Positions 22,585-47,300 of a stretch of 64,000 nt of DNA are shown piece after piece; the first letter of the stretch is position 1, and the number at the start of each line of letters is the position of its first letter. The translations under genes were made by a program, and so were the position numbers. This DNA comes from Minisyncoccia bacterium (GTDB lineage: Bacteria; Patescibacteriota; Minisyncoccia; Phycocordibacterales; UBA9973). The stretch is from NCBI GenBank assembly GCA_049303835.1, contig JBAQNN010000001.1, positions 1,762-65,761 on the forward strand. Direction: 5' to 3'. The notes below the pieces were generated by a model. That model saw nothing but the letters and a program-made list of their open reading frames with translations, ran no database searches and was not told the origin of the DNA.

Positions 22585-22646
22585 GTTTTGGCTAGTCTAA
22601 AACTAACAGGTCGCGATAGTAGTGTTCTTTGTTTTAAAAATTGTTT

Positions 22647-24343: not shown

Positions 24344-24370
24344 AATAATTATAGCACTTTATCTGTGGAG

Positions 24371-26365: not shown

Positions 26366-26387
26366 ATAATTTTAATTTAATAATTGC

Positions 26388-29558: not shown

Positions 29559-29635
29559 TTTATTAACACATGTCACTTGACAAGTGAGTAGTATGGTATA
29601 AACTATTGTAATAGTATCATGCCCTTGCTAAGGGT

Positions 29636-29869: not shown

Positions 29870-29871
29870 AT

Positions 29872-31770
29872 ATGGCCAATACTTCAAACAAAAATGAAAA
29901 CAATAAGATTTTAAGTTGGCATTTCCCAGCTCTTGATCACGCTGACACAGAAGGGTTGAATGATCCACTTCTTGGATACTTTAGTGGTGACTACAATCAA
30001 AATGTTGCAAGAGAAGTAATACAGAATTCTATAGATGCACGAAACGACAGTGAACATCCGGTGTTGGTTAAATTCGAAAAACTAAAGTTGCCCACAGCAG
30101 AAATTCCAGGAATAAAAGAGTTGCAAGAGCGAATAAAAATTTGTTTAGATCAAGCCAAAAGTGAAAAAAATGATAAGGCAGAGAAACATTATCATGAAGC
30201 ATTAGAAGCTACTAAGGCTTCTCATACTGTCATTCTTAGAGCTTCCGACTACAATACTTCTGGCTTGGATGGTAATGATGATGATAAAAAGGGTAAATGG
30301 CATCGCCTTGTGAAAGCAGTTGGAGAAAATCAACTCACAGGTGCTGGTGGCGGATCATATGGAATTGGAAAGGGTGCGCCATTTGTTGCTTCACTTATGA
30401 GGACAGTTTATTACTCAACAAAAAATTCATTAGGAGAAACCATATTCCAAGGAAAAGCACGACTTCTTAGTCATCAATGGGAAAGTAAAGATTATCGTGG
30501 AGTAGGTTCTTTTGGTATTGGTGGTTATAAGTCAGTAAGAGATGTAAATGATATACCGAATTTTTTTATACGAAATGAACAAGGAACAGATATTAATATT
30601 ATTGGATACAGCCCATCATTAGCGTGGAAGGATGAACTTGCAAAATCAGTTTTAGATAATTTTTGGATGGCTATACATGCTGGTGATCTTGAGGTTATTA
30701 TAAAAGAAGGGTTGATTGATATCCACATTGATCGAGCTAGCCTACTTGGTCTTTTAGAAAAATACAGCCGAAATGATGGTCTTATTTATTATCGTACTGT
30801 AATTAATCCAACGCGAACATTTAAAAAACAACTCCCGTTACTTGGTGCTTGCACTTATTATGTGCGTATTGAAGAAAAATTTCCTAGAGAAACAGTGTAT
30901 ATGCGTCGCCCTAAAATGTGTGTAAATAAATGGCGTTTTAATAAAACACTTCATGAACCTCACGCTGGTGTATTTATTTGTGAGGATGTAGAAGGAAGTA
31001 AATTATTACGAAACCTTGAACCACCAGAACATGATGATTGGAAAGCAACACTAGAACCCCTACAAGGTAAAGAAATTTTGGATATTGTAAGGTCGTGGAT
31101 AAAAGATAGTTTGCTTGAATTGGCGGCAGACGAAAGTAATGATTCGGAAGAAGTTCCCGGACTAGAACAGTTTTTGCCGTATGATGAAGATTCTGAAAAT
31201 ACATCTCTAAATAATAAAAATAAAAGTAAACCCACAGGTTCAGCAGAATTGGATGAAGGACCACTTGAAACTGGAGCTGAACGTGAGGAAGAAGTTGATG
31301 AGGTAGAAGACTATGTTAGAAAGCCATCAAGCCAAAGACCTTCAGGTGGTAGTGGACCAGGATTTAGCCATGGTGGTGGCAGTAATGGTGGAAGTGGTGG
31401 TGGTGATAGTATTGGTGGAGACAATGACGACAGGAACGAAAATATTAAACGAATTGATACATCTTCCGTAAAATTTAGAATAATTTACACTGGACAGTCA
31501 AAAAAGGGAAATGCAGAATATTGCCTAGTTGTTCAACCTCTTGCTGATGTAGAAGGGGGCATAGAAATTGTCGCTCTTGGTAATGATTCTACGGTATATC
31601 CAATTCCACTTGCTTATGTTGAACCGTGGGACAAAAGTAATGATTCTTTTCGTGCTGAGGGGTCCTATATAAACGGATTAAATTTTAAAAAAGGAAAAAC
31701 CCAACGCATTAAAATAGGTACAATGTCTAGGTCGAGGTATGCACTAGGAATAGAAAATTATGAAAGCTAA
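29872..31770 (+). CDS. GHKL-superfamily (MORC/MutL/Hsp90-like) ATPase with unknown C-terminal region containing an acidic/Gly-rich low-complexity linker
   Basis: Bergerat N-box 'AREVIQNSIDA' (ExxxNSxDA) near the N-terminus and a G2-box-like 'TGAGGGSYGIGKGAPFVAS'. The 3' end overlaps the next gene by 11 nt. Confidence 0.65.
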   Translation: MANTSNKNENNKILSWHFPALDHADTEGLNDPLLGYFSGDYNQNVAREVIQNSIDARNDSEHPVLVKFEKLKLPTAEIPGIKELQERIKICLDQAKSEKNDKAEKHYHEALEATKASHTVILRASDYNTSGLDGNDDDKKGKWHRLVKAVGENQLTGAGGGSYGIGKGAPFVASLMRTVYYSTKNSLGETIFQGKARLLSHQWESKDYRGVGSFGIGGYKSVRDVNDIPNFFIRNEQGTDINIIGYSPSLAWKDELAKSVLDNFWMAIHAGDLEVIIKEGLIDIHIDRASLLGLLEKYSRNDGLIYYRTVINPTRTFKKQLPLLGACTYYVRIEEKFPRETVYMRRPKMCVNKWRFNKTLHEPHAGVFICEDVEGSKLLRNLEPPEHDDWKATLEPLQGKEILDIVRSWIKDSLLELAADESNDSEEVPGLEQFLPYDEDSENTSLNNKNKSKPTGSAELDEGPLETGAEREEEVDEVEDYVRKPSSQRPSGGSGPGFSHGGGSNGGSGGGDSIGGDNDDRNENIKRIDTSSVKFRIIYTGQSKKGNAEYCLVVQPLADVEGGIEIVALGNDSTVYPIPLAYVEPWDKSNDSFRAEGSYINGLNFKKGKTQRIKIGTMSRSRYALGIENYES

Positions 31771-32590
31771 AAACATATCATATCCATATCCTGTTCTAGG
31801 CAATGACGATGATGTAGAGGGTAAACTCGACGCTTCTTTTAAACACATGCTCAAGCGAGATAATATAATTCTTAAATCTCGTTTTTCACTGAAAAATAAA
31901 ACTCTCGAAAAACTCATAAAAGAAAAAAAAGCTATATATACAGTGGAAGTAGAATGTCCTAGTACTTTTTTTAGAAAACTTTTTTCTACTTTTGAGCCAG
32001 AGGCAGATTTTGTATTACCTTCAACTATAGTACGAGAACATGTTTCGGTAGGATTTTTTATTCGTGCTACCGACAATATACCAAAATATGAAATAGTTGG
32101 TTGTCATTCTGATTATAAGGGATTTAAGTTTGATGTAGGACCTGGAGATGTTTTGGCGCTTGGTGGATTTACGTCTTTTATTGCAGAAAAAGATTTTGAT
32201 CCAATGCAACCCGCTGTTTCGTCTCTTATTGCAATTAAGCAAGGGAATAATGATACAGGACCCATGGAAATAGATTATTCACAAGACAAAATTTTTATTA
32301 AACTTTCTCATAAAGACCATAAAAACTATTCGCAAATAAAAGGACAAGCAACTATTGCCGGGGTTCTGCATTCTTCTATTGTGTTGCCTGTTTTAACTGA
32401 TGCTATTCGTTTAGTTAATGAAAATAATGAAGAAACACAGGATAGACACTGGTTTCGACGTCTTGAGGTGATTTTACGACAGCAGGAACTTTCAGATGAA
32501 GATCCACTTATTAGCTCACAGAAGATTTTGCGTAGTCCAATAGAACGTTGTTTAGCAGGTCTCGTCGAAACAACCGAAGCGGATGAATAA
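31760..32590 (+). CDS. hypothetical protein (276 aa), translationally coupled to the GHKL ATPase
   Basis: Overlapping start/stop with the upstream gene. No motif recognised. Confidence 0.45.
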   Translation: MKAKNISYPYPVLGNDDDVEGKLDASFKHMLKRDNIILKSRFSLKNKTLEKLIKEKKAIYTVEVECPSTFFRKLFSTFEPEADFVLPSTIVREHVSVGFFIRATDNIPKYEIVGCHSDYKGFKFDVGPGDVLALGGFTSFIAEKDFDPMQPAVSSLIAIKQGNNDTGPMEIDYSQDKIFIKLSHKDHKNYSQIKGQATIAGVLHSSIVLPVLTDAIRLVNENNEETQDRHWFRRLEVILRQQELSDEDPLISSQKILRSPIERCLAGLVETTEADE

Positions 32591-32599
32591 AAAACAAAT

Positions 32600-33391
32600 A
32601 TGACTAATCAAAATATTTTCAAACGGATGTATGTAGCAGAACTTCGAGATAAAATACGAAGCGGAGAATCTTTGTGTGATTATTTTAAAAAAGATGTTGA
32701 ATACCCCATAGAGACTTTAATTCAATCTACAATTAAAACAGATCCAGAGAAACTTAAACTAAAATATCGTGGTAAAAACGAATCAGCAAGTAACGATCTA
32801 GAAAACGCCATAGCTTTATATGAAGCATTTCCAGACTTAACTGAAACACAGGCTTCAGACCCTAGACTTTGGACATATCTTACCCACGTTACCCTGCGAG
32901 ATTATGTATTTGCTAGATGGCCGATCGGAGGTAGTTGTGAACAGATAAAAACTGATAGCAAACAGCAAGCTACTACCATTGATTTTATACTAAGTCACTG
33001 GTTTGCTTCTGGTGGCAACGATCGTTTACTCCGTCGTAACGCAGCAGCTCGTTTATGGTGGCCAGTACATCTCACACATGCTCCATGGTTACGTGAACCA
33101 GAATTTTTTGCAGATTTAAAAACAAATGACCCGTATCGTTTCACAAAAATATTACTTTCAATGGAAAGTATTTATGCAGAGGTGCTTGAACGGGGATTAG
33201 GTCGCGACAACCGTATACTCATAACAGTCTTGGAATTTTTTGAAGCAAACAAAAGTATTAAACGAGAGCAAATTCGTAGTTTTATGAAAGAACTAAATCT
33301 TTTTCTTTCTGTTAGAAATCTCTCTTTATTGTCGAGGAAAGAGATGAAGGAAACAATATTTGATATCGGTAACACAACTCTAAAAGAATAA
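32600..33391 (+). CDS. hypothetical protein (263 aa), Trp/Arg-rich
   Basis: 9-nt gap after the previous gene, same operon. 'RLWTYLTHVTLRDYVFARW' conserved-looking block. No motif recognised. Confidence 0.45.
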   Translation: MTNQNIFKRMYVAELRDKIRSGESLCDYFKKDVEYPIETLIQSTIKTDPEKLKLKYRGKNESASNDLENAIALYEAFPDLTETQASDPRLWTYLTHVTLRDYVFARWPIGGSCEQIKTDSKQQATTIDFILSHWFASGGNDRLLRRNAAARLWWPVHLTHAPWLREPEFFADLKTNDPYRFTKILLSMESIYAEVLERGLGRDNRILITVLEFFEANKSIKREQIRSFMKELNLFLSVRNLSLLSRKEMKETIFDIGNTTLKE

Positions 33392-33467: not shown

Positions 33468-33701
33468 TTAGGACCAATTACCAACTGAATAATCATAGAT
33501 AGCATCGGTAGCTTCTATCGCTGTCATATTTTCCAATTGAGACAAACGAAGTTCTTGTTCCTCTTCTTGGAAGTTAGCACAGATTATTTCTGTAAGCGTG
33601 TTTCGTTGTCTGTCCGAAATCATTTTTTCCTCACCTAAATACTTAAGAGGCCAATAGTTTCGTGGCAACTCAAAGTCAGCTGTGATTGTTTTTGTAATCA
33701 T
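33468..33701 (-). CDS. conserved small protein (77 aa), copy 1 of element right-end module
   Basis: Homologous to 61773..62012 ('MISDRQRNTLTEII' vs 'MISEGQRRTLTNLI'). Confidence 0.55.
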   Translation of the reverse strand: MITKTITADFELPRNYWPLKYLGEEKMISDRQRNTLTEIICANFQEEEQELRLSQLENMTAIEATDAIYDYSVGNWS

Positions 33702-33715
33702 AATTTTATGTTAAG

Positions 33716-34258
33716 TTAGTAATTTTTCACAAAAGATTGAATTTTTTCAGAGGCCTCATCCTTTGTGAGCAGATTAATTTGCGCCTCCCAATATTTGCGT
33801 TTACTTTCGTCAAAAACATTTGAGCGAATGAGTTCTCGGAGGTAATTTTTTTGACGATCGGAAGCGAGGTCAACTCCAATTGTTTCTTGAGTTAAAACTT
33901 CACCATTATCTTTAAGATAAAGAACGTCTAATGCTTTGACTGATTGAATAATGGAGTCAATAATTGAAGCGTTGAGCGTATAACGAACTGACCTATCTAC
34001 CCACTTATTAATTTTGCTTAAGATATTGCTACCTCTACCAATACCAAGAACTTGCGCTCCTTTCCGGATAGTGCATTTATAAGCAATGACGGGACCAGGT
34101 AGATCTTTAAGTTGAAGTACGGTTTCTTTGTCCTCCTCGATTAATAGTTCAAGGTTTAACTTGCACTCGTTTGCCTTTATGGCTTCTTGAACTGGATCTA
34201 GTTTCTGTTTCGTTTGAAATGGAGATGGAATCTCATTTTTATACATTGTTTTATTCAT
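33716..34258 (-). CDS. conserved hypothetical protein (180 aa), copy 1 of element right-end module
   Basis: Homologous to 62036..62707 ('AYKCTIRKGAQVLGIGRGSNI' vs 'AYRCILKKNGVLCGEGRGSASI'). Confidence 0.55.
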   Translation of the reverse strand: MNKTMYKNEIPSPFQTKQKLDPVQEAIKANECKLNLELLIEEDKETVLQLKDLPGPVIAYKCTIRKGAQVLGIGRGSNILSKINKWVDRSVRYTLNASIIDSIIQSVKALDVLYLKDNGEVLTQETIGVDLASDRQKNYLRELIRSNVFDESKRKYWEAQINLLTKDEASEKIQSFVKNY

Positions 34259-34425
34259 TGTTTTTTAATTTAGTGATAAGAATTTTATTTCGGGAATATT
34301 GGACTTTTATTTTTGTGCCTTCTGGAAACCCGAACTTTTCAAGAAGATGATTAGCAATAACAAGTTTACTAGTCATAGGCCTATTACCTCGATATTGATA
34401 ACTTACTGTCATTAATCGTTCCATC

Positions 34426-34749
34426 TTATTTTTTTGCTAATTCAGTGACTTGTCTATAATGGAATAGATAAACACTCTTGATTCTTTTAACAATTTTAGT
34501 CGGATCCTTTTTGTCACGTGTTTCTAACACAACAAAAGAACGGATAGCATGCTCACCTTTTTTAGGGATCATATTAAATTTCAAAATCCAATTTTTCGCC
34601 GTAAGAGTTGAGCGTAACGGATCGTAGTTACGTAATTCACTTTTGCCCCACCTGCGGCAAATTTCATCCTCAACTATAGATCTCGTTTTGGATGACCCAC
34701 TAAAATTACTTATCTCAGGACCTTCTAATATTTCTTTTATAGATTTCAT
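34426..34749 (-). CDS. conserved hypothetical protein (107 aa), copy 1 of element right-end module
   Basis: Homologous to 62893..63207 ('MKSIKEILEGPEISNFSGSSKTR' vs 'MIQSIKEILAGPKVSNWHGSEKTR'). Confidence 0.55.
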   Translation of the reverse strand: MKSIKEILEGPEISNFSGSSKTRSIVEDEICRRWGKSELRNYDPLRSTLTAKNWILKFNMIPKKGEHAIRSFVVLETRDKKDPTKIVKRIKSVYLFHYRQVTELAKK

Positions 34750-35200: not shown

Positions 35201-35262
35201 TGTTCTCGGTTGGCGAACTTGAAAGCTTGACATTTTATTTAATTATAGTATAATTGATTATT

Positions 35263-38200
35263 ATGAAATTAAAAAAGTTGAGTTCATTTGTCGTAGTTGT
35301 TTTAACCTTTTCCATTGCGCTTGGCAGTTTTAACTCACCTGTCTTTGCATATGAAAAAAGTAGTGTTAATTTACAGCAAGTTAAAACCTTATCTGATAAT
35401 AGTGAAACTATTTTAAATAAATTAGATTCTATATCTAAGCCAACTAGCACCCTTTCACAAGATTTATCTAATAAAAAACAAAATTTATCAGAATCCAAAA
35501 AGAAACTAGGTACAGATTTATTGAGATTGATCGATAGTAATTTCTTATTACCAAATCAAAATCGTACCCAGGTTATATCTGAAATGAAAGGATTAAAACA
35601 GTTTGTTGCAAGTGCTGATTCTGTAAAAACTGTAGACAAAAGAGTAACCAACAAAATACATAATGATTTAGTTTATGTTTATGTAAATCTTCAACCAACA
35701 ACTTCAACTTTCGTAATTGATTCTATTGCATGGAAAGTAACTGATAGAGATGAAAAAAATCATTTAGCAGTTGCTTTAGTCGAGGTTAATAAATTAGAAA
35801 CACTTGCTTCGTTAAAGGGAGTAAAATCAGTTAGTTTAGTTTTGCCACCGGTTACTAGAAGTGGCTCTGTTGTTACAGAAGGAGATTTAATTCATCAAAC
35901 TGATGATGTTCGAAATACTTATTCTCAAGGAGGAGCTGGAATGAAAATTGGAGTTATTTCTGACGGGGTTGATAATCTCGCTTCTGCACAAACTAGTGGT
36001 GATTTGCCACCAGCTGTAACGGTTCTTAGTAATTTTGAGGGAGGTGATGAAGGTACTGCGATGTTAGAGATTATTCACGATATGGTACCAAATGCCAGTC
36101 TTTATTTTCATGATGCTGGTAGTAATGTGATAGCCTTTAACTCCGCTATTGACGCTTTAATTGCGGCAGGTGCCAATGTTATTGTTGATGATGTTGGCTG
36201 GATAACCGAACCATTTTTTGAAGATGGGACAGTAGCTTCGCATGTTGCCTCTGTGTTGGCGGTAAATAATATTGTTTATGTTTCATCTGCTGGGAATAAC
36301 GCCGAAGAACACTATCAAGGAATTTTTAATGACAATGGAAGTGGATGGCATGATTTTAGTGCAGGTTTGAATCAGGTTCTTTTGGTCTCTGTGCCCAACG
36401 GAGGTTCTATAATACCTATTTTGCAGTGGAATGATAGTTTTGGATCGTCTTCAAATGATTACGATTTATATTTAGTCAACCAATCTTCAGGAGCCCTTTT
36501 GGATGCAAGTGAAAGCGTCCAGAACGGTGATGACGACCCTTTTGAAGGAGTTATATATACAAATATAAGCGGAAGCACAATTCCAGTGGGTATTTATGTT
36601 AATAAATTTTCTGGTGTTGCAAAAACCCTAGAATTATTTATAAATCCAAAAGATGGTGCAGTTGTTAGTCCAACCAATATAACGGGCGTAGACTCTATTT
36701 TTGGTCATGCAGCAGTACCAGGAGTAATAACAGTAGGAGCTATTAATGCTAACGATCCTGGTAATGATACGATAGAACCTTTTTCTTCGCAGGGTCCTGT
36801 AACTATAATTGGTCAAGCTCAAAGAGCAAAAACAGACATAACAGGTATTGATTGTGTATCAACTTCTGCAGCAATACCTATTGCAACAGGATTACATCCT
36901 TTTTGTGGCACAAGTGCGGCTGCCCCTGCGGTGGCTGCTATTGTTGCTCAATTATGGGGACAATACCCTACAGCAACGGGTACTCAAATAAAAAATCACA
37001 TATTAAATTCAGCAGTAGAATTAGGTACAGCTGGGACCGATTCTATCTTTGGACACGGACGAGCTGATTCGCTTCTTTCTTTTCAAACTGGTCCGACAAT
37101 TGCTTCATTTAATTTTACAACCCCAGCAGTCACAGGTGTTATTAATGAAAATGCAAAAACAATTTCACTAACTGTACCTTACGGAACTAATATCACTGCC
37201 CTTGTACCAACGATTGCAGTTTCTGCTGGGACTTCAGTTGGTCCACTTTCTGGTGTAGCTCAAGATTTTTCTAGTCCTGTAATTTATACAGCCACTTCTG
37301 TGGATGGTTTAATTAAGTCTTATACAGTAACAGTTACAGTCACTCCTAATCCTGCAAAAGCAATCACTTCTTTTGATTTTACAGCTCCAACCGCAACAGG
37401 AGTTATTGATGAGAGTGCTAAAACGATTTCTTTGACAGTACCTTTTGGAACTAATGTAACTGCACTTGTTCCAACAATAGAAATTACTGGAGCATCAATT
37501 GTTCCTAATACTGGAATAGCTAATAATTTTACAACTCTACAAACTTATACAGTTACTGCTTTGGATAGTTCAACTCAAGCTTATGTAGTAACTGTAGCTT
37601 TTGATACTGATCCAGACATTGCCAAAGTGGCTACTGACAAAGCTGCACTAGTGGATAGTTTAATTCAAGGGGCAAACGCTGATTTATCAAATATAACAAC
37701 AACACTTACAAGTCCATTACCAGCTCTTGGAACTATTAATGGTTCAACAATAACATGGGCATCAAATACTCCTTCTGTTGTTTCAAATGATGGACAAACA
37801 GTAGTGAGACCAGCTTTTGGAAATGCAAATGCCACAGTAATTTTAACCGCAACAATAACTAAAGGTGTTGTAACCGATACAAAAACATTTACACTAACAG
37901 TGCTTGCAGAAACACTAAACCCAGATATTGCATTTGTTGCTTCTGACAAAGCATCTTTAGTAGATGATTCTATTAAAGGAGGAAATTCTGATTTATCAAA
38001 TATTGAAGTAGCTCTTACAGATCCATTACCATCACTTGGAGCTAATGGTTCAACTATCACTTGGTTATCAAGTGATTCAGCTGTTGTTTCAAACAATGGA
38101 CAGACAATCAATAGGCCAGCTTTTGCAGATGGAAATGCAACTATTACTATGACTGCCACTATCACAAAAGGTGTCATTACTGATACGAAAGTATTCACAT

Positions 38201-40659
38201 TAACGGTATTAAAATTACCAGCAAGCACCGTAACAACAATAACTTCTTCAACTTATACAGTAGGCGCTAATACAATTAGTAATGTTACATTTAACACATC
38301 AAAAACTGATTTCTTAGCTGCTTTAACAAAAGGAGAATTAAATCAAACTTGGAATGATGCAGGAATAAATAATCCAGTCGTTACAGGAAATACTTTAGTT
38401 GTTACTGCTCAAGATGGTATAACCACGGTAGCTTATACAGTGACTGTTAATGCAGAACCCGACACCACTGCTCCAATCATCACCCTTAATGGAATTACTC
38501 CAGACATTGAAGTTGGTGGTTCTTATACTGAACTCGGAGCAACTGCTACCGACGCTGTAGATGGTTTATTTGCAGCTACACCTTCTGGTTCGGTTGATAC
38601 TAATGTTGTTGGTACTTACACAATTACTTATACTGCCACTGACGTGGCAGGAAATATTGCCACTCCGGTAATAAGAACAATTAATGTTGTTGCAGTACCA
38701 ATAGTATTAAATAGTATTGAAATAACAACTCCCGCAACGAAACTCTCTTATACAGTTGGTGAGTCACTAGATATTACAGGATTAGTAGTTACTGGAACAT
38801 ATTCAGATTCTTCTACCCAAATAGAAACAATTACAAACAGTAACATAACTGGTTTTGATAGTTTAGTACCAATAGTTGGTCAAATTTTAACAATTACAGT
38901 TAATGGAAAAACGACAACTTATACAGTTGACATTATTGCTCTTCCAGAACCAGATACAACTGCTCCAGTCATCACCCTTAATGGTACCAATCCTACAGAA
39001 CTGACAGTTGGTGATACCTTTACTGATCCCGTCACTGCTTCTGATAATATTGATGGAGACATTACTGCGAACATTATAAAAACTGGAACCTTCATTAATT
39101 CTTCAGTAGCTGGAACATACACAATTATTTACAATGTTTCTGATGCAGCTGATAATCCAGCGACAGAAGTTACTAGAACAGTGAATGTAAATGAAGTTGT
39201 TCCAGATACTATACCTCCTATTATTGAATCTCATGATACTGTTACAGCTGAGGCAACTTCAAGTGCTGGTGCTGTTGTAAATTACACATCTCCAAATGCA
39301 ACAGACAACGTAGATGCAACAGAACCCGCAGTTTGTCTTCCAGCTTCTGGAATATTATTTATAATTGGCACTTCAGAAATAACTTGTAATAAAACAGATA
39401 CAGCTGGAAATATAGCTACACCAACAACTTTTAATGTAATAGTACAAGACACAACACCACCAGAGATTACATTAAATGGTGATACTGTTATAAATCTTAT
39501 AGTTGGTGATTCCTATGCGGATGCAGGAGCTACCGCTTCAGATATTGTTGATGGAGACTTAACTGGAAACATAATACAGGGAGGTGATGTCGTAAATACT
39601 TCACAACCTGGTTCTTATATTATTACTTATAACGTAGCTGATGCTGTCGGTAATCCTGCAACACAAACAACAAGAACAGTTAATGTTTCTGACACAGAAG
39701 CCCCAACTATTAATAGTACTTCAGATATTACTACAGAAGCAACCAGCGCTAGTGGGGCAATAGTAATTTATGATGAAAGTACTTTAACTGCTACTGATGA
39801 TATTGACGGTGTCATTTCTGTAGATGCAGGGTCCTGTATTCCTGCATCCGGCTCTATTTTTGCGCTTAGAACAACTCCTGTCTCATGTTCAGCTACTGAT
39901 TCTTCTGGAAATGAAGGCAATGGGGTAGCATTCTCTGTAATTATTGAAGATACAACTATTCCAACAATTACTATGTTGGGTTCAACTCCTATTGAACTAA
40001 CTGTTGGTGATTCCTATACGGATGCAGGAGCTACCGCTTCAGATATTGTTGATGGAGATATTACAGATAATATTATCAAGGGTGGAACTTTTGTAAATAC
40101 TACAGTTGCAGGAACATATACAATTACTTATGATGTTTCTGATATGACTGGTAATAATGCTGTTCAAGTTACAAGAACTGTTATTGTTGGTACTCCTCTA
40201 CCAGATACAACTCTTCCCGTTATTACTCTTACAGGAAGTTCAACTATGAACCTTGTAATTGGGCAGACTTTTTCAGATCCAGGTGCAACCGCTTCTGATA
40301 ATGTTGATGGAAACATTACCGCTAACATTGTAGTCGGAGGAGACACAGTAAATACCGCTAATGCCGGAACGTATATCATTACTTACAATGTTTCTGATGT
40401 CGCAACTAATGCCGCCATTGAAGTAACACGCACAGTTATTGTCACTACTCCTCCTCCAAGTGGAGGTGGTGGAGGAGGATCTACGCCACCAGCAACTAAA
40501 AAAGGTGATGCTAATAAAGATGGTAAAGTTGATAAATATGATTTTGCTTTGATAATGGCTAATTGGGGCAAGACCGGAACAAGCGATTCAGATTTTAATG
40601 GTGACAACAAAGTTGATAAATATGATTTTGCATTATTAATGTCGAACTGGGGATTATAA
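35263..40659 (+). CDS. giant secreted surface protein: signal peptide, subtilisin-like (S8) protease, tandem Ig-like/HYR-like repeats, C-terminal dockerin repeats (ORF opens at TTG 35254; ATG 35263 likelier start)
   Basis: Signal 'MKLKKLSSFVVVVLTFSIALGSF'. S8 triad context 'GVISDGVD', 'HGT', 'GTSAAAPAVAAIVAQL'. Two ~105-aa tandem repeats at ~37606-38220. Five ~85-aa repeats 'PDTTAPVITLNG...AGTYTITY.VSD..GN.A..VTRTV.V' at ~38455-40440. Dockerin-like 'GDANKDGKVDKYDFALIMANWG' and 'DFNGDNKVDKYDFALLMSNWG'. Own promoter TTGACA 35227-32 / TATAAT 35249-54. Confidence 0.8.
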   Translation: MKLKKLSSFVVVVLTFSIALGSFNSPVFAYEKSSVNLQQVKTLSDNSETILNKLDSISKPTSTLSQDLSNKKQNLSESKKKLGTDLLRLIDSNFLLPNQNRTQVISEMKGLKQFVASADSVKTVDKRVTNKIHNDLVYVYVNLQPTTSTFVIDSIAWKVTDRDEKNHLAVALVEVNKLETLASLKGVKSVSLVLPPVTRSGSVVTEGDLIHQTDDVRNTYSQGGAGMKIGVISDGVDNLASAQTSGDLPPAVTVLSNFEGGDEGTAMLEIIHDMVPNASLYFHDAGSNVIAFNSAIDALIAAGANVIVDDVGWITEPFFEDGTVASHVASVLAVNNIVYVSSAGNNAEEHYQGIFNDNGSGWHDFSAGLNQVLLVSVPNGGSIIPILQWNDSFGSSSNDYDLYLVNQSSGALLDASESVQNGDDDPFEGVIYTNISGSTIPVGIYVNKFSGVAKTLELFINPKDGAVVSPTNITGVDSIFGHAAVPGVITVGAINANDPGNDTIEPFSSQGPVTIIGQAQRAKTDITGIDCVSTSAAIPIATGLHPFCGTSAAAPAVAAIVAQLWGQYPTATGTQIKNHILNSAVELGTAGTDSIFGHGRADSLLSFQTGPTIASFNFTTPAVTGVINENAKTISLTVPYGTNITALVPTIAVSAGTSVGPLSGVAQDFSSPVIYTATSVDGLIKSYTVTVTVTPNPAKAITSFDFTAPTATGVIDESAKTISLTVPFGTNVTALVPTIEITGASIVPNTGIANNFTTLQTYTVTALDSSTQAYVVTVAFDTDPDIAKVATDKAALVDSLIQGANADLSNITTTLTSPLPALGTINGSTITWASNTPSVVSNDGQTVVRPAFGNANATVILTATITKGVVTDTKTFTLTVLAETLNPDIAFVASDKASLVDDSIKGGNSDLSNIEVALTDPLPSLGANGSTITWLSSDSAVVSNNGQTINRPAFADGNATITMTATITKGVITDTKVFTLTVLKLPASTVTTITSSTYTVGANTISNVTFNTSKTDFLAALTKGELNQTWNDAGINNPVVTGNTLVVTAQDGITTVAYTVTVNAEPDTTAPIITLNGITPDIEVGGSYTELGATATDAVDGLFAATPSGSVDTNVVGTYTITYTATDVAGNIATPVIRTINVVAVPIVLNSIEITTPATKLSYTVGESLDITGLVVTGTYSDSSTQIETITNSNITGFDSLVPIVGQILTITVNGKTTTYTVDIIALPEPDTTAPVITLNGTNPTELTVGDTFTDPVTASDNIDGDITANIIKTGTFINSSVAGTYTIIYNVSDAADNPATEVTRTVNVNEVVPDTIPPIIESHDTVTAEATSSAGAVVNYTSPNATDNVDATEPAVCLPASGILFIIGTSEITCNKTDTAGNIATPTTFNVIVQDTTPPEITLNGDTVINLIVGDSYADAGATASDIVDGDLTGNIIQGGDVVNTSQPGSYIITYNVADAVGNPATQTTRTVNVSDTEAPTINSTSDITTEATSASGAIVIYDESTLTATDDIDGVISVDAGSCIPASGSIFALRTTPVSCSATDSSGNEGNGVAFSVIIEDTTIPTITMLGSTPIELTVGDSYTDAGATASDIVDGDITDNIIKGGTFVNTTVAGTYTITYDVSDMTGNNAVQVTRTVIVGTPLPDTTLPVITLTGSSTMNLVIGQTFSDPGATASDNVDGNITANIVVGGDTVNTANAGTYIITYNVSDVATNAAIEVTRTVIVTTPPPSGGGGGGSTPPATKKGDANKDGKVDKYDFALIMANWGKTGTSDSDFNGDNKVDKYDFALLMSNWGL
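38455..40440 (+). repeat. five tandem ~255-bp coding repeats (Ig-like/HYR-type modules) inside the surface-protein gene
   Basis: Repeated peptide block beginning 'PDTTAPVITLNG'/'TEAPTINS'/'TIPTITM'/'PDTTLPVITLTG' with shared 'GATASD.VDGD.T.NII.GG..VNT...G.Y.ITY.V.D..GN.A' core. Confidence 0.7.
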
Positions 40660-40674
40660 AAATTAATTAAAAAA

Positions 40675-41397
40675 ATGAAAAATATTAAAATAAAAATTAT
40701 ATTATCAGCAATTATACTTTTATCAGTTATGAGTTTTATTGGTACAGTACATGCTGCGAGTTCTTCCTTGTATGTTTCCCCAGCAAGTCTTACTAAAACC
40801 GCTGGAGATGTTTTTAACGCTTCTGTGGGATTTAATGCTTCTGGTAATAAAGTTTGTGCAGTTGAAGGAACGTTAAATTTTAAGAATTTGTCTTGTCAAA
40901 GTATAACTGTTGCAAGTGGCGTTATGACTCAAACGACTCCTACCTGTTCTAACCCTTACTTTATGATCGGTATCCCAAATTGTACTACAGCAGATAAGGT
41001 ATTATTTACGACATCGGTTAAGGCAGGAAGTGCTGGACCAGCCTCTATTGGTTTTACTAGTGTTGATGTAATAGGAGAAGGTGCATCAGTCGGTTCAGCT
41101 TCAATAAGTGGAAATTACACAATTAATGCTGTTCCAGTACCAATTACGCCAAAAGTAAATACTGAAACAACAACTCCTAAAACAACTAAACAAGCCGTTC
41201 AACCAATTGAGCAAGTAACTCAGAAGACTGAAGTTCCTGTTCAAGAGACAGCTCCAGAAAATAATCTAGTAGCAAATGCAGGAGCAACTGACATAACACC
41301 AACTGGTTCTAATTGGTTTAATTATTTTGCAATAGCATTAGTTATTTTGATTGCTCTTTATGGTATTTATTACTTTTTAAAGAGAAAAAAAATATAA
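40675..41397 (+). CDS. membrane-anchored secreted protein with cohesin-like beta-sandwich domain and C-terminal TM anchor (possible docking partner for the upstream dockerin protein)
   Basis: Signal peptide, then 'SLYVSPASLTKTAGDVFNASVGF...LNFKNLSCQSITVASGVM', a Thr/Pro-rich linker, and TM 'FAIALVILIALYGIYYFLKRKK'. Cohesin assignment is by pattern only. Confidence 0.4.
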   Translation: MKNIKIKIILSAIILLSVMSFIGTVHAASSSLYVSPASLTKTAGDVFNASVGFNASGNKVCAVEGTLNFKNLSCQSITVASGVMTQTTPTCSNPYFMIGIPNCTTADKVLFTTSVKAGSAGPASIGFTSVDVIGEGASVGSASISGNYTINAVPVPITPKVNTETTTPKTTKQAVQPIEQVTQKTEVPVQETAPENNLVANAGATDITPTGSNWFNYFAIALVILIALYGIYYFLKRKKI

Positions 41398-41490: not shown

Positions 41491-42078
41491 ATGAAAACAT
41501 TAAAAGAATCATGCTTTGCGCTAAGTACAAAACTATTGAGAAAGGGTCTACAGAAAGCTAGAAATAAAGAACTAGTGGAGGAAGAATATTTAAATTTTAT
41601 ACATAACGGTAAACCGTCTGTTCTTTTCTACTCCATAGAGGATAGTTTTGATGGGAATACCTATCTTGTAATTAACTTTAATGCAGAACCGCAGAAAATA
41701 CTTTTATCTGATCGAGAATTAACCTATGGTACAAGAACTTATTTAACCTGCCTTTGTGGACACAAAACCAATGCCTTATACCTCAAAAACACCCCAGGAA
41801 GCACGTTCTTTGCCTGTTTCAAGTGTCATAGCCTTCGTTATAAATCTACTACGATTAATAGCAGGAGTGATCATGGCCGAATGCTTTATCAACAAAGCAA
41901 GAGGTTGGCTCTCCTTGATATGCGCGAAAGCATTCCACGACCTCTGTATAAATCTAAATGGACCAAGCGTTTTCAACGTTTCTTGAAACTCTGTAATCAA
42001 TCGGGATTGTTTAACCAAGTAAGAGATGCTCAGACAACAACGGAAACGATAAAAGCCTTTCAGTCTCAACAGATTTAG
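41491..42078 (+). CDS. hypothetical protein (195 aa) with Cys/His cluster 'CLCGHK...CFKCH'
   Basis: ORF with TATAAT box at 41477-41482. Followed by hairpin TACCACC/GGTGGTA plus T-tract at 42260-42288. Confidence 0.4.
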   Translation: MKTLKESCFALSTKLLRKGLQKARNKELVEEEYLNFIHNGKPSVLFYSIEDSFDGNTYLVINFNAEPQKILLSDRELTYGTRTYLTCLCGHKTNALYLKNTPGSTFFACFKCHSLRYKSTTINSRSDHGRMLYQQSKRLALLDMRESIPRPLYKSKWTKRFQRFLKLCNQSGLFNQVRDAQTTTETIKAFQSQQI

Positions 42079-42299
42079 ACGAATGCAATACTTTTGCGAT
42101 TTTTTTAGAAGCTGTTCGTGCGGTGGGGGATTTTCTAGTAATCCACAGTTGCCCTTGCTTAATGGACTTTTCATAATATTTTTGCTATATTATAGATGTG
42201 CTTGTGGGGCGTCAGCCCTATTCGGCTAATTCATAAGCCGAAGGCAGGCATAACAAAGCTACCACCTTAATCGGTGGTATTTTTGTTTCTAGTTCATAT

Positions 42300-42788: not shown

Positions 42789-44468
42789 TTAGCATATTTG
42801 CGCCGATGATTGAAAGGTCGGAATATAGATTGTAGTATCATTTACAAGCTCAAACGCAGTTCTAACATCGTCCAATAGTCCGCGCAACAGTGAACGAAGA
42901 TGAGGAAAGTCATAAATCGTCTTTTGTTTACAAGCTAGTTCTGGTTCAGTACTAGCCAACTGCTCTCTTAGTGAAGAGTAGGCTTTTTGAATGTGGAAAT
43001 ACCATTCGAAGGCTTTAATATTGACTATTTTGTCTTTTATCTCTCGGTTCATACCCAGACTCTTGATGATTTCTTTTCGGGTTCTTTTGTCCCCATTTTT
43101 AAGAGCAATCAAGGCATAAGTAGAATAATAGAATGCTTTCTCAGTTAATTCCATAAGATTTTCATTCTTGTCAGCTTCAACCTCAGTTAATTGGGTTTTT
43201 AGGCTATTTATTGTCTTGTCTAACTCTGCTCTAGATTCTTTGAATTCATCATCTGAAAGTAACCCCCTAGATGCCATTAGGATCAACTTCTTTAATTCTT
43301 CCTGCTTAGTTTCTACGGTCTTTGATACATTTTCTTTTACATCTTTCTCCGTTACCGTTTCTAGAACATTATTGTCTTTCAGTACTTCAAGTGTCCAACT
43401 TAAGAAAGCAGAATCAATTGTATATTTTTGGATTTCAGCCTCTATTTGTTCCTCTACCTTGGTTTCGTTAATATTGTATTTCTGGCTGCAGTAAACTACA
43501 CTCTTTTTATGACCACAGAGATAAAATACATAAACTTTTGTTTCTTTAGTACTTTTTATAAATTTAATCTTCTCAATCCCAACGAATGAACGATTGCACT
43601 CGCCACACATAAAAGTTCCACAACCATAGGCAAATTCATGGGTTTTTGCTCTTGGTTTACCATGTTCTTTAAGGAGCGTCTGTACGCGGTCAAATTCTGC
43701 CATAGTTATCATTGGTTTATGATCTCCTTTATACATTTTACCTTTATACATAAAGTATCCAGTGTAAAACATATTGGTAAACATGCCGTAAGCGCTAGTA
43801 TAGCCAATCTTTCCTCCACCAACTTTTTTCTTTTTGGGAGTAAGTAAGCCCCACTCTTTTGTAGCAATCTCTCGCACTTGGGGGACACTATAGTTTCCAG
43901 TTAGTAATAAATCCCACATTTTACGAACAAGAGGGAATCGTTCTACATCTTCCATTATTTTATTTTCTCCTCGTGTTGCTAATTTTGTATTATAATAACC
44001 AACTGGTGCTAGGCATGGCATTCTCCCCATACTTAATTTATCGCCTAATCCACGTTTTACATCAACACCAAGTTTGGAAGAATAATATTGTGAATCTGAA
44101 AGAGCGTTTTGTAGGTGTTTTATTCCATCTGGTGTATTTTCAAAAGTGTAACTTACAAATTTTAAATCTTTAATTAGATTTTTTCTTATAGAATAGGTAA
44201 TATCTCCAGCTTCTTTTTCATTTCTTGAGAGGCGATCTGGGTGCCAAGCTATTATTCCATGCAACTCACCACTTAATGCCATATTAAGCATTCTTACAAA
44301 TTCTGGTCTATTGTTGGGTTCAAAGGCACTACGACTTTCTTCAAACCAGACAATGTCGAAGTCTGGAAATTTATTTTTGATTGCTTCCTTTTGCGAGGCA
44401 ATTGAAAGCGCTTGTTTTTCTTTTGCTTCACTCGATTTACGTATATACCCTCCATATTTATATTTCAT
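42789..44468 (-). CDS. large serine recombinase (paralogue of 22682..24343)
   Basis: 'GGYIRKSSEAKEKQALSIASQ' catalytic Ser motif. Zinc ribbon 'CGTFMCGECNRSF...FYLCGHKKSVVYCSQ'. Aligns along its length with the element-1 recombinase. Confidence 0.85.
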   Translation of the reverse strand: MKYKYGGYIRKSSEAKEKQALSIASQKEAIKNKFPDFDIVWFEESRSAFEPNNRPEFVRMLNMALSGELHGIIAWHPDRLSRNEKEAGDITYSIRKNLIKDLKFVSYTFENTPDGIKHLQNALSDSQYYSSKLGVDVKRGLGDKLSMGRMPCLAPVGYYNTKLATRGENKIMEDVERFPLVRKMWDLLLTGNYSVPQVREIATKEWGLLTPKKKKVGGGKIGYTSAYGMFTNMFYTGYFMYKGKMYKGDHKPMITMAEFDRVQTLLKEHGKPRAKTHEFAYGCGTFMCGECNRSFVGIEKIKFIKSTKETKVYVFYLCGHKKSVVYCSQKYNINETKVEEQIEAEIQKYTIDSAFLSWTLEVLKDNNVLETVTEKDVKENVSKTVETKQEELKKLILMASRGLLSDDEFKESRAELDKTINSLKTQLTEVEADKNENLMELTEKAFYYSTYALIALKNGDKRTRKEIIKSLGMNREIKDKIVNIKAFEWYFHIQKAYSSLREQLASTEPELACKQKTIYDFPHLRSLLRGLLDDVRTAFELVNDTTIYIPTFQSSAQIC

Positions 44469-44480
44469 AATTTTTTTATA

Positions 44481-44738
44481 TTAATTAATAATCGAGACTT
44501 TCTTAGTTTTAAGAAACATCTTTTTAGCCAGAGCATGGGAATAATCGGATATACTTACTGGCTGATAAAGAATTGCTATTGTTCGGAGTAGTGTTTCTGC
44601 TCGTGTGAGTGCTTCTGGTTCCGATAATGTTACACCAGTTTTTGCTTTAAAGAGATTTATAAACTGCAGAAGTCTTTTGTTAGAAATATTCATGCTGGTT
44701 AAGTTCATCCTATTAAATTTATTTGTAATTTTATCCAT
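44481..44738 (-). CDS. small hypothetical protein (85 aa)
   Basis: ORF between recombinase and prim-pol. Confidence 0.3.
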   Translation of the reverse strand: MDKITNKFNRMNLTSMNISNKRLLQFINLFKAKTGVTLSEPEALTRAETLLRTIAILYQPVSISDYSHALAKKMFLKTKKVSIIN

Positions 44739-44927
44739 TTTTTTATTTGGATTAGTAATTTTTCTAGTTTAGACAAACTAAAAGGACGGTTCTGGCTGTC
44801 CAATACATTTTCTCCAAAATAGGATAGATATAATGGCAGAACCGCCCTTTCAGGGTCATTATACCTATTTATTCCTATTATCTTTGTATTAGACAGCATA
44901 TGAATTATAGCACTTTAATCTCGACAT

Positions 44928-46955
44928 CTAAAATGGTGGATTATCAATGCCATCTTCGTCTCTTTCGACCTCTTCACATTCAAACGATTCTTTATAATCT
45001 TCCTGTTTTCCTGCCTCTATATAGGATACGGAAGCAGGAAGATCATCAACTTGGGTAATTTTGATAGGAGAAAGTATCCAAGGGAGGCGGTAGTGTGCCT
45101 TTTTGCGGTTTTCTTTTGGTACTTCTCCTTTTGGAACTCTTTCAATCTTTTCATCATCTTCTGCTAGTTTTATTCCTCGGTCTATAACATCTCTACCGTA
45201 ATCATCTTCAAAAAATTCAAGAATTTCTGAACGACTTTTCATTTCTTCTCCTAGAAATGACACTAAAGCTGTTCCTACTTCTTCGGCTTTCTTCTTCTTT
45301 TCATCGTGATCACCAGCATATTCAAATCCAGATGGACCCGATTCGCTTTTAATGATGTTGATTTCAAACGGTGACAACAATTCACCTTGACGTAATTTCG
45401 TTTGTCGGAGAATAAGGCGATCTTCGTTCTCGTTTTTCTTCTCAATAGTCATATGACAATCTACCGCTGCTAAAATATCTGATGAACCTCGCATACTTTG
45501 GCCAGGATTATTTGACCCTTGTCCTTTTTGTTGTTTTCTGTGGTGGTGAGTAAAGAGGATAGATGCTCCCTCGGTAATTATTTTTTGGAGATTACTAAAC
45601 ACCTTTGCCATACCACCTGCATCATTTTCATCTTGTCCATGAACTCGAACAAGAGAATCAAGTATGACTAGTTTTATATTTTTTTCTTTAACAATCCCTA
45701 GTATCATGTCGCGGACTTCTTCCATATCCACTTTAATACCACTCTGTGATAGATAATGAATATTATCAGTTTCTTTTGCACCAAGTAATTCCAAACGCTT
45801 TTGTAATAGTCGTATGTGATCTTCTTCGTCTATTATCAATACACCTCCCTGTGATGCCTTGAATTTACCAAAGACAGGAAGATTGCGTGATACACAAAGT
45901 GCAATATGAATAGTCACCCAAGTTTTGAAGTCTCCAGGGTTACCAGAGAGTGCCATCATGCCTTGTTTGGATATTAATGAATCTACAAGCCATTCCTCCT
46001 CTCCAAAGTCTTGCTCTAGAATTTCCCCAATCGTCCATAAGCGAGGTCTGTTTGTGGAGGACATTCTGGCTTTCATTTCAGTTTCTCTATCTTTTACTTT
46101 AAGTTTAAGTATCCCTTCGAAAGTGTTATCTAATTCTTGTTTACGTTCCTCAAATCGTTCTTTTGATCCTACGATTTTTTGATCCCATGCGTAATAATTC
46201 ATTCTGGCAGTTTCAACCTTTTCTGCGGTGTCTGCATGTTTAAGAAGAAGACCTGCTATCTGTGCTAATGCTCCATGTCGTAGACCTTTACCTATTGGTA
46301 CGCCTTTAAGCAACAATTCCATTGCAGGAGTTTTAGTGTTAACTTCATCGTCAGAATATTTTGGGACCATTGCATCCAGCTCTTCAAGTGTACATCTTGC
46401 TTCTGGCTTATATGACACAATTTTAATTTCAAAAGGATTATTAGGATCTTTTAAGTGTAGTGTATAAGGCAAACGAAGCACTCGTGATGGATCAATGGGA
46501 TTTTTGTCACCATTAAAACACTGCACTAGTCTTTTCTGTACAGCTCTCCATTTCATGATGTTTTCTAATGTAGGTTTAAGAGATTCTGGAAAAAGCCAAA
46601 TGAGATGAGTTCCTTTTTGAGTACGGTTAATTATCGTTGGAGTTGGCACACCAGTTTCTAGGCCTGACATAAGAGTTTCTTGAATCAATCTGTCTTTTTC
46701 TTCTTGGGGTAGTCTGACCTCTACATCAAAATCAACATAGTTACCATTTAAAGATAGCAACTGTGATTGGTCTGCCTTACCAGTAGGAGGAAATCCATTG
46801 ACTGTGAAAAAGATGCCGTACCCTTTTTTATTCCACGATAGATCAAGTACACTGCTTCCTTGTATGGCTAATCCATTTGTTGAGTCATGTATATAGCGGA
46901 ATCGAGTGTTGGGGAAGAGCGCTATAAACTCTTCTTGTGTTAGTTTTTCTTGCAT
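44928..46955 (-). CDS. prim-pol-like primase fused to AAA_25/RepA-like ATPase (paralogue of 24371..26365)
   Basis: Same position as in element 1. P-loop region 'ALSGNPGDFKTWVT...VLIIDEEDH'. N-terminal region diverged. Confidence 0.6.
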   Translation of the reverse strand: MQEKLTQEEFIALFPNTRFRYIHDSTNGLAIQGSSVLDLSWNKKGYGIFFTVNGFPPTGKADQSQLLSLNGNYVDFDVEVRLPQEEKDRLIQETLMSGLETGVPTPTIINRTQKGTHLIWLFPESLKPTLENIMKWRAVQKRLVQCFNGDKNPIDPSRVLRLPYTLHLKDPNNPFEIKIVSYKPEARCTLEELDAMVPKYSDDEVNTKTPAMELLLKGVPIGKGLRHGALAQIAGLLLKHADTAEKVETARMNYYAWDQKIVGSKERFEERKQELDNTFEGILKLKVKDRETEMKARMSSTNRPRLWTIGEILEQDFGEEEWLVDSLISKQGMMALSGNPGDFKTWVTIHIALCVSRNLPVFGKFKASQGGVLIIDEEDHIRLLQKRLELLGAKETDNIHYLSQSGIKVDMEEVRDMILGIVKEKNIKLVILDSLVRVHGQDENDAGGMAKVFSNLQKIITEGASILFTHHHRKQQKGQGSNNPGQSMRGSSDILAAVDCHMTIEKKNENEDRLILRQTKLRQGELLSPFEINIIKSESGPSGFEYAGDHDEKKKKAEEVGTALVSFLGEEMKSRSEILEFFEDDYGRDVIDRGIKLAEDDEKIERVPKGEVPKENRKKAHYRLPWILSPIKITQVDDLPASVSYIEAGKQEDYKESFECEEVERDEDGIDNPPF

Positions 46956-47272: not shown

Positions 47273-47300
47273 AAATTATTTCATTCATTTTAATAATTGC

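Follow-up and report, generated by a model that had tools for sequence, protein, structure and literature searches.

Does a bacterium of the Patescibacteria tether a giant secreted protein to its own surface with the product of the very next gene? This question is raised by a 64-kb stretch of DNA from a Minisyncoccia bacterium (64,000 nucleotides of contig JBAQNN010000001.1; this whole stretch is called the window in the following), in which a gene for a giant protein with a C-terminal dockerin is directly followed by a gene for a 240-aa protein with a cohesin-like domain. A preliminary description of the window had proposed that the two products, a dockerin-bearing protein and an anchored cohesin-like protein, form a docking pair at the cell surface. 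Our computational analysis upholds this proposal: the predicted fold of the 240-aa protein, the gene order in 87 of 87 loci, the co-variation of the two partners and the homology to a sister family point in this direction, and we consider it likely that the two genes constitute a plug-and-socket surface-display cassette of this Patescibacteria bacterium.

Both genes are located on the plus strand, and both are found in the list of open reading frames (ORFs) where they had been described, the giant one at 35254..40659 (1801 amino acids (aa) from a TTG, probably 1798 aa from ATG 35263) and the small one at 40675..41397 (240 aa). They are separated by a gap of 15 nucleotides (nt) and are in frame with each other. 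The terminator scan revealed no terminator-like site between them, and the 240-aa gene is probably co-transcribed with the giant gene. The exact match of the 240-aa protein is WA060_00195 from a Minisyncoccia bacterium, a metagenome-assembled genome (MAG) of the Patescibacteria, which agrees with the tiny-genome organism that had been assumed; all members of the protein family are annotated as hypothetical.

Strict pairing of the dockerin and cohesin-like genes

Genomes and metagenomes yielded loci that encode relatives of the 240-aa protein, altogether about 0.9 Mb of DNA (single loci are referred to by L numbers). They contained 95 distinct cohesin-like genes, 87 of them with at least 200 nt of upstream sequence, which make up the testable set. 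A dockerin-ending gene on the same strand was found directly upstream in all 87 cases, the gap being -13 to +73 nt; in the upstream protein, 0-5 aa follow the dockerin. The reverse also holds, since 101 of the 102 dockerins of the window subtype are followed by a strong cohesin-like match, and even for the sole exception, a pair in L009, the next ORF is a divergent cohesin-like one. The same arrangement is present in a sister family, which we call A3 after its alignment (A1 being the alignment of the window's socket family): the socket lies directly downstream of a dockerin-ending gene in 4 of 4 loci. The pairing of the two genes is more than chance.

While the dockerins and the cohesin-like domains are conserved between loci (mean pairwise identity 70% and 63%, respectively), the passengers to which the dockerins are attached are unrelated from locus to locus and range from 97 to 2575 aa with a median of 331 aa; nearly all carry a signal peptide. 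Giant protease-type passengers like the one in the window are encoded in at least eight other loci, and further classes comprise canonical S8 proteases with a fervidolysin-type prodomain, DUF5018 arrays, CHB_HEX_C_1 domains and small domains with the motifs FPMAFWG and PGIPHQFYG.

Many cassettes have a contig end only a few kb away, and several dockerin genes are cut by it (for instance in L012, L014, L023 and L025); strain-level variation of the passenger gene may cause assemblies to break there or close by. Two RNA elements were observed downstream of cassettes, a SAM riboswitch match (48.9 bits) directly 3' of the cohesin-like gene in L002 (10856-10967) and a group I intron match (69.7 bits) just 3' of the cohesin-like gene in L047 (7043-7265).

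The 240-aa protein as a probable divergent cohesin

The 240-aa protein starts with a signal peptide (aa 1-27), followed by the cohesin-like domain (aa 30-152, nt 40762-41130), a Pro/Thr-rich linker (aa 153-212) and a C-terminal hydrophobic helix (aa 214-239) with a KRKKI tail. An AlphaFold2 (AF2) model built on the family alignment predicts an all-beta sandwich for the domain (predicted local distance difference test (pLDDT) 90-97) and a disordered linker, in agreement with the architecture that had been read from the sequence. The comparison of this model with known cohesin structures had been suggested as a check on the proposed pair, and its result is in favour of it: in a Foldseek search of the PDB, 13 of the top 14 matches to the confidently predicted sandwich were cohesins. 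They span types I, II and III as well as non-cellulosomal cohesins, with E values of 9e-7 to 4e-5 and target-normalised template modelling (TM) scores of 0.57-0.70, and include 6kgf, 2xdh, 5n5p, 5m2o, 2ccl and 2w1n; among the proteins represented are CohA2 of Clostridium acetobutylicum, the Archaeoglobus cohesin 2xdh, Ruminococcus ScaB, C. thermocellum CipA and C. perfringens GH84C.

A bridge to the cohesins at the sequence level is provided by the divergent partner in L009 (4246-5052), the seed of A3. It matches the HMM of the window family with E=5.7e-7 and reaches 19.2 bits with Pfam Cohesin (PF00963; threshold 24.1), covering profile positions 4-131 of 139. The search for A3 relatives gave 356 matches, all of Patescibacteria type and about 250 aa long; among the matches listed, PF00963 is precomputed in about a quarter of 120 A3 relatives, and one relative is named 'cohesin domain-containing protein'. 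The profile-profile alignment of A1 with A3 (hhalign) yielded 99.4% with E=2.6e-21 over 224 columns, with the same architecture in both families. We take the 240-aa protein to be a divergent cohesin, an assignment that has good though indirect support from its predicted fold and this transitive homology.

The dockerin

The C-terminal dockerin of the giant protein (40492..40656, + strand, aa 1747-1801) follows a PPPSGGGGGGSTPPA linker and matches Dockerin_1 (PF00404, type I-like) at aa 1750-1796 with 30.1 bits, compared to a gathering score of 22.9. Both calcium loops are present, DANKDGKVDKYD at aa 1752-1763 and DFNGDNKVDKYD at aa 1780-1791, so that the two calcium-binding repeats of the preliminary description are borne out. 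An identity of these repeats as EF-hands was considered as well and rejected: the EF-hand models stayed below their thresholds, whereas Dockerin_1 exceeded its own. The upstream partners in the other loci score 27.6-41.5 bits with Dockerin_1. When a 64-aa dockerin was used for a homologue search, seven short proteins were found and nothing else.

Of 88 dockerins of the family, at least 79 carry D/N/D/D/D at the calcium-ligand positions 1, 3, 5, 9 and 12, in both loops. Positions 10-11 are the classic recognition positions of cellulosomal dockerins, and here they are Lys-Tyr in both repeats of 75 of the 88 dockerins. In the giant protein these residues are K1761-Y1762 and K1789-Y1790, and the repeats are symmetric, both reading KYDFAL. 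The AF2 model of the dockerin fused to the cohesin-like protein shows a helix after each dockerin loop and bridging residues between the loops. It was computed as a single chain (dockerin, in-frame stop as X, cohesin-like protein) and has pLDDT values of 80-84 in the dockerin and of 94-98 in the cohesin-like domain.

Co-variation of recognition residues and two specificity types

If dockerin and cohesin-like domain touch each other, residues at the interface should change together, and three positions of the cohesin-like domain behave in this way. Partners of dockerins with Lys in both repeats (n=76) contain E64 in 100%, D131 in 99% and E135 in 99% of the cases. Where both repeats have Glu instead (n=5), position 64 of the partner is R, K or M, position 131 is K, R or N and position 135 is V or A; mixed K/E dockerins have partners with Q64. 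The Glu-type pairs belong to at least two lineages, a clade formed by L096, L103, L106 and L023, and the separate L107. A Fisher test gives p = 3.9e-8, uncorrected and ignoring kinship, a value that overstates independence because the Glu-type pairs fall into few lineages. The identities of dockerins and cohesins are correlated as well (Mantel r=0.56, reached by 0 of 2000 permutations). The strand with E64 is presumably the equivalent of cohesin strand beta3, which contacts the dockerin in CipA, judging from strand order and from alignments of A1, A3 and CipA.

The A3 cassettes represent a second type, in which the dockerin recognition residues are hydrophobic (IL/IF, IT/IF and VL/VF; L009 3584-5052, L110, L111 and L112). 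Both types can be found in close vicinity, in L009 at a distance of about 2.2 kb, and both appear to occur on one Jorgensenbacteria contig (P0086 and P0384), while passenger domain classes are common to both. Since both types can occur in one genome, the sequences suggest that the plug/socket pairs of the two types are orthogonal.

Docking partner or generic surface protein

Several results weigh against a cohesin-dockerin interaction and have to be set against this evidence. No Pfam or NCBIfam domain was identified in the 240-aa protein, including no direct match to Pfam Cohesin, which is matched by one of 38 family members (E=4.8e-4), and the family profile built from 38 members found no match among the PDB sequences. 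Direct alignment of A1 with the CipA cohesin (query sequence verified as 1aoh) gave 0.2% in hhalign, and A3 gave no signal with the single CipA cohesin. The link from A1 to the cohesins leads through A3; it is transitive and no more than moderately strong, and membership in the cohesins rests on it together with the predicted fold. Cohesins are typically roughly 140 aa long, so that the domain of about 123 aa is short for a cohesin, and it contains four conserved cysteines, which are not known as a cohesin feature. The fused dockerin-cohesin model has a predicted template modelling score (pTM) of just 0.58 and speaks neither for nor against docking. For the invariant Lys of A3 that aligns with E64 we had predicted an acidic dockerin partner; this prediction failed, since the residues are hydrophobic instead. 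Finally, the co-variation comes from few independent lineages, and linked genes share ancestry, which inflates the statistics.

One could thus ask whether the 240-aa protein is a generic surface protein with an Ig-like or beta-sandwich fold (pilin-like, an adhesin or wall-associated) that is co-expressed with the giant protein without binding its dockerin, which would then bind elsewhere, to a host-cell glycan, to a further cohesin encoded at another site of the genome or to calcium alone. The missing Pfam Cohesin match and the 0.2% alignment with CipA would fit this explanation, as would structural matches of the model to non-cohesins, namely a CLIPPER domain (E=8e-6) and YcnI, BslA and pilin domains (1e-4 to 1e-3). 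Non-cellulosomal dockerins have moreover been proposed to be adhesins (PMC10066038) or glycan binders (PMC10633639), and an essential dockerin protein of Southlakia has no cohesin-like gene next to it. A generic protein would not be expected to find cohesins in 13 of its 14 best structural matches, nor to be homologous to a sister family that bears PF00963, and the strict two-way 1:1 adjacency across all loci collected argues against it as well. There are also the reciprocal charge swaps at the canonical recognition position: such a reversal is what a physical interface predicts, and co-expression alone offers no explanation for it. We therefore regard a generic, non-binding protein as very unlikely, the least probable of the alternatives considered here.

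Anchoring of the socket

If the 240-aa protein is the socket of a docking pair, it has to be held at the cell. A lipoprotein anchor was rejected, since inspection of the region where the signal peptide would be cleaved revealed no Cys. A conserved juxtamembrane segment of the protein (41290-41394, aa ~205-240), which in both families lies ahead of the C-terminal helix and the basic tail, reads ENNLxA..G... in A1 and LLA[AS]VG...LGT in A3; it could be a lineage-specific sorting signal.

The C-terminal helix might serve as a membrane anchor, or it might be part of a sortase-like substrate, in which processing removes helix and tail and attaches the socket to the wall by a covalent bond. The latter would be a variant of the docking pair and not a replacement for it. 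The tripartite C-terminus (short conserved motif, helix and KRKK tail) is in favour of a sortase substrate, and the TIGR01167 model LPXTG_anchor reaches 15.2, just below its cut-off of 15.9; one family member matches Gram_pos_anchor (E=0.01), and the juxtamembrane motifs (NNLxA..G and LLA[AS]VG...LGT) are common to both families. Sortase anchoring of cohesin proteins is also known from cellulosome systems (PMC9012536). However, a canonical LPXTG is missing, the corresponding motif in the window being ITPTG and degenerate across the family, and the TLxTC signature is present in no ORF of the 64-kb window, which is only part of the genome. Covalent attachment by a sortase is a minority possibility in our estimation, which we consider rather unlikely.

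Comparison with known cohesin-dockerin systems

Cohesin and dockerin modules outside of cellulosomes occur in archaea and bacteria, and for some of them, including archaeal pairs, binding has been verified according to work cited in PMC9012536. Such pairs, for example from Archaeoglobus fulgidus (2xdh), from the glycoside hydrolase complexes of Clostridium perfringens (2w1n) and from ANME archaea, resemble the cassette in combining a dockerin of two calcium repeats with a cohesin beta-sandwich, in being found in organisms that do not degrade cellulose, in having surface or secreted partners and in lacking a multi-cohesin scaffoldin; the model of the 240-aa protein has 2xdh and 2w1n among its best structural matches. 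They differ in that the socket of the cassette is a stand-alone, C-terminally anchored protein of about 240 aa with a single cohesin-like domain, that it is encoded strictly 1:1 downstream of the dockerin gene (87/87 loci), that Pfam Cohesin does not detect it and that its host belongs to the Patescibacteria. The passengers are different, too, consisting of proteases, Ig-like stalks and small domains.

The anchoring scaffoldins provide a second comparison, represented by the type II SdbA, OlpB and Orf2p of C. thermocellum with SLH domains and by the sortase-anchored ScaE of Ruminococcus flavefaciens. Here, too, a cell-bound cohesin tethers a dockerin protein and the anchor carries a flexible Pro/Thr-rich linker. 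In contrast to these proteins, the socket of the cassette has no SLH domain or clear LPXTG, possesses one cohesin per protein without any hierarchy, contains four conserved cysteines and receives a cargo that is not a carbohydrate-active enzyme. The symmetric repeats of the window's dockerin (KYDFAL twice) resemble the cellulosomal type I dockerins with a dual binding mode; recognition in the type I dockerins of C. thermocellum relies on Ser-Thr, whereas Lys-Tyr is found here. Membership in a cellulosome was rejected, as there is one cohesin-like domain per protein and no glycoside hydrolase catalytic domain in the passengers.

The closest relative of the window family is A3 (for example P0312 and P0350), with the same layout of signal peptide, domain of about 120 aa, Pro/Thr linker, juxtamembrane motif, helix and basic tail. 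Like the window family it sits downstream of dockerin-ending genes, and it shares the PGIPHQF[FY]G passenger class. The two families are only about 21% identical (profile alignment) and differ in the hydrophobic dockerin recognition residues of A3, and some A3 members are recognised by PF00963 whereas the window family is hypothetical throughout.

Dockerin-bearing surface proteins have been reported from Omnitrophota and Saccharibacteria (PMC10066038, PMC10633639). The most similar case is SEML1_0315 of Southlakia epibionticum, an essential protein of the Patescibacteria that likewise combines Ig-like domains with a dockerin and for which a role in host interaction was proposed (PMC10633639). 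Its neighbours are an alpha/beta hydrolase and tRNA-Glu, and PMC10633639 discusses no cohesin partner for it; SEML1_0315 is not part of a cassette of the type described here, since no cohesin-like gene adjoins.

The giant passenger protein

The giant protein begins with MKLKKLSSFVVVVLTFSIALGSFNSPVFA, followed by YEK, which by inspection reads as a Sec signal peptide, as had been described. Pfam identifies Peptidase_S8, two DUF5018, two aBig_2, one Big_3, five Bact_surface_Ig-like and two HYR domains in addition to Dockerin_1. The subtilase-like (S8-fold) domain extends over aa ~190-620 (35821..37113, + strand). Its Peptidase_S8 match of 55.3 bits is above the cut-off of 21.8 and covers profile positions 153-288, the C-terminal half, and no more; alignments with relatives in the PDB are likewise confined to the region of the Ser motif.

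The family of this domain comprises 12068 cluster representatives at E<=1e-3, and 151 aligned members were used to inspect the canonical subtilase motifs (D[ST]G, HGT, GTSxxxP and the oxyanion Asn). Ser554 (GTS554AAAP) is conserved in 100% and the oxyanion N348 (AGN) in 99% of them. The position of Asp32, on the other hand, is occupied by S236 (99% Ser), the adjacent D237 being conserved in just 82%, and the His64 position of the HGT motif is E266 in an EGT (100% Glu). E272, D276, D312, D313 and H353 are invariant or nearly so. From these motifs the domain appears to be subtilase-like without being a canonical Asp-His-Ser subtilase, and its chemistry could be non-canonical, of a Ser-Glu type or with a relocated His. 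The S8 protease of the preliminary description thus needs a qualification, as Ser and Glu are found in place of the canonical Asp and His.

Between the protease-like domain and the dockerin lies a stalk of 12 beta-sandwich modules (37096..40443, + strand), delimited by Pfam matches and an internal HMM parse: two modules of DUF5018 type (aa 615-784), two aBig_2 (aa 792-987), one Big_3 (aa 1160-1225) and seven of HYR/Bact_surface_Ig type (aa 1069-1730; internal HMM parse). About seven Ig/HYR repeats had been counted before; these correspond to the seven HYR/Bact_surface_Ig units, which are one class among the 12 modules. The repeats had also been described as nearly identical at the DNA level and the gene as a potential hotspot for assembly collapse and phase variation. 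Neither claim held: the pair singled out for this, 37606-37920 and 37921-38220, is 68% identical in DNA with a longest common exact word of 16 nt, and the copies of the remaining stalk repeat families are 65-76% identical. With repeats that have diverged to this extent and no tandem array in the giant gene reported by TRF, the idea of a hotspot has no basis.

Promoter, downstream ORF and LOOT RNAs

A sigma-70-type promoter, TTGACA-N16-TATAAT, was identified at 35227..35254 on the plus strand by consensus match alone, with 12 of 12 hexamer positions in agreement. Its end at 35254 is located 8 nt ahead of ATG 35263, and the TTG start overlaps the -10 box. Because the promoter overlaps TTG 35254, ATG 35263 is more likely to be the true start of the giant gene, and the mRNA is probably leaderless or near-leaderless. 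Downstream of the pair there is an ORF of 195 aa (41491..42078, + strand) for which no Pfam, NCBIfam or PADLOC match was found; among the loci compared it has a homologue in L001 only (61% identity). It may be co-transcribed with the pair, since the terminator scan places a bidirectional terminator-like hairpin at 42260-42279.

Upstream of the giant gene the window contains a LOOT RNA (RF03000; 35067..35183, + strand, 82.2 bits compared to a gathering score of 46.4) and further downstream a second one (63520-63641, + strand, 87.5 bits, same gathering score). Both matches are full length (model positions 1-121), and each follows a divergent small-gene set and a promoter-like site. The first one, which ends 80 nt upstream of ATG 35263, may act as a regulatory element or be a small RNA in its own right; it is part of the locus without being part of the docking pair itself.

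Further LOOT copies were located with Rfam and with an nhmmer profile built from the Rfam copies, after a regular expression had missed real copies. Rfam found LOOT in L001 (3446-3569), L018 (2698-2819), L077 (545-666) and L088 (1807-1917), and nhmmer alone in L102 (100-208), L013 (4701-4816) and L020 (9691-9808, minus strand). In L018, L077 and L088 the Rfam copy is followed after 114-229 nt by a large dockerin gene, and in L001 it precedes the cassette operon; of the nhmmer copies, the one in L102 is located about 66 nt upstream of the dockerin gene and the one in L013 about 2.5 kb upstream on the same strand. Altogether, LOOT on the same strand 66-230 nt upstream of a large dockerin-tagged gene was found in five loci, and no match was found upstream of the large dockerin genes in L017, L019, L027 and L079. 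The link of LOOT to dockerin genes is recurrent, but not universal. LOOT, an orphan small-RNA family, is now placed in Patescibacteria and linked to surface-protein genes.

Two paralogous trios of small genes accompany these RNAs, each on the minus strand and divergent from a LOOT RNA, one at 33468-34749 (77, 180 and 107 aa) and one at 61773-63207 (79, 223 and 104 aa). Family searches with these genes gave no matches, and their homologues were found in L001 only, again beside LOOT, whose regulators or partners they may be.

Is the pair cargo of a mobile element?

The pair had been described as lying between two mobile elements and as possible cargo of them. Modules with a large serine recombinase, a Prim-Pol/AAA_25 gene and a small PolB-like gene are indeed present on both sides, at 22682-26918 and 42789-47828 on the minus strand; they are paralogous, with segments of 77-79% DNA identity. 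The recombinase gene of the first module and tRNA-Asp (22647-22721) overlap at the 3' end of the tRNA. Between this module and the giant gene lies a block of a Dcm-type cytosine methylase and PDC-M33 genes (28485-33391), which includes PDC-M33A/B/C, a candidate anti-phage trio (29872-33391; PADLOC 397, 213 and 122 bits, the third protein being DUF6339). From 5' to 3' the order is Dcm methylase, PDC-M33 trio, small-gene trio, LOOT, the pair, the 195-aa ORF and the terminator-like hairpin.

In the tRNA cluster at 22236-22721 a third tRNA was detected by Rfam at 22463-22535 that had been missed by ARAGORN, and 5' fragments of two tRNAs are duplicated, those of tRNA-Met at 22236-22278 and 22320-22362 and those of tRNA-Asp at 22563-22595 and 22637-22669. 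The duplicated fragments are possibly integration scars.

It could be argued that an integrative mobile or defence island carries the pair as its cargo and that the role of the pair is centred on the element, for example in surface exclusion or in the modification of the recipient surface, and not on housekeeping surface display for the host. The position between two recombinase modules and beside the Dcm methylase and the PDC-M33 trio favours such an island, and the whole block of recombinase, Dcm, PDC-M33, surface protein, dockerin and cohesin is syntenic in L002, L003 and L008, with CBASS-like genes also present in L002. But a search for an att-type repeat of the 3' end of tRNA-Asp found none, no element boundaries emerged, and GC content and skew give no island signal. 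Among the 57 loci with a length of 8 kb or more, just 5 have homologues of the serine recombinase in their flanks, and other cassettes adjoin core genes, such as a ribosomal protein operon (L111), an rRNA (L019) and ParA/ParB (L110). Because the block from recombinase to cohesin is syntenic in three further loci, mobility of the pair as island cargo is plausible at the window locus and for the syntenic block of L002, and to this extent the earlier suggestion stands; it is not a general property of the cassette. In addition, the argument concerns how the pair spreads and is compatible with docking as its mechanism. A role that serves the element is quite improbable in our judgement, though slightly less so than a generic, non-binding protein.

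A model for surface display and its implications

For the plug-and-socket cassette, which we favour, the following sequence of events can be proposed. The first gene would provide a Sec-exported passenger, in the window a subtilase-like head on a long Ig-like stalk, that ends in a calcium-binding dockerin. The second gene would provide a likewise Sec-exported single cohesin-like domain on a Pro/Thr-rich stalk of about 60 residues; the C-terminal hydrophobic helix and the basic tail would keep this domain at the cell, either as a membrane anchor or as a sortase-type signal. Outside of the cell the dockerin would fold with calcium, bind the socket non-covalently and thereby tether the passenger. 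Contact would be made by positions 10-11 of each dockerin repeat (Lys-Tyr) with E64, D131 and E135. Plug and socket would be kept while passengers are freely exchanged between genomes, and at least two specificity types would exist, one using Lys-Tyr and the other hydrophobic residues (I or V, then L, T or F). A role of the passenger in attachment to or feeding on host cells is speculation.

The dockerin-cohesin mechanism as such is familiar; new are the protein family, its architecture, the strict gene coupling and the host lineage. A strict 1:1 operonic cassette of dockerin and anchored cohesin in Patescibacteria/CPR was not described in the literature searched. In a wider sense, and here we are tentative and would put the case at somewhat less than probable, Patescibacteria (at least those of Paceibacteria/Minisyncoccia type) might possess a widespread, undescribed operonic 1:1 display system with at least two orthogonal types, swappable passengers and a subset with giant passengers that is under the control of LOOT or associated with it.

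The cassette gives names and testable partners to two sets of hypothetical proteins, with 181 matches in the socket family and 356 in the sister family, and predicts specific interface residues that can be tested by mutagenesis. A short, orthogonal plug/socket pair that comes in a second specificity type might also find use in the engineering of surface display. For the LOOT family, the link to the cassette would be the first functional lead.

Patescibacteria represent a large share of bacterial diversity, and their surface molecules are mostly uncharacterised. Cultivated members live attached to host cells (PMC10633639). The exposed passengers of the cassettes vary widely among related genomes. 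If the system is as widespread as tentatively proposed here, it would be a main route by which episymbionts vary their host-facing surface, and LOOT would gain a host lineage and a functional context.

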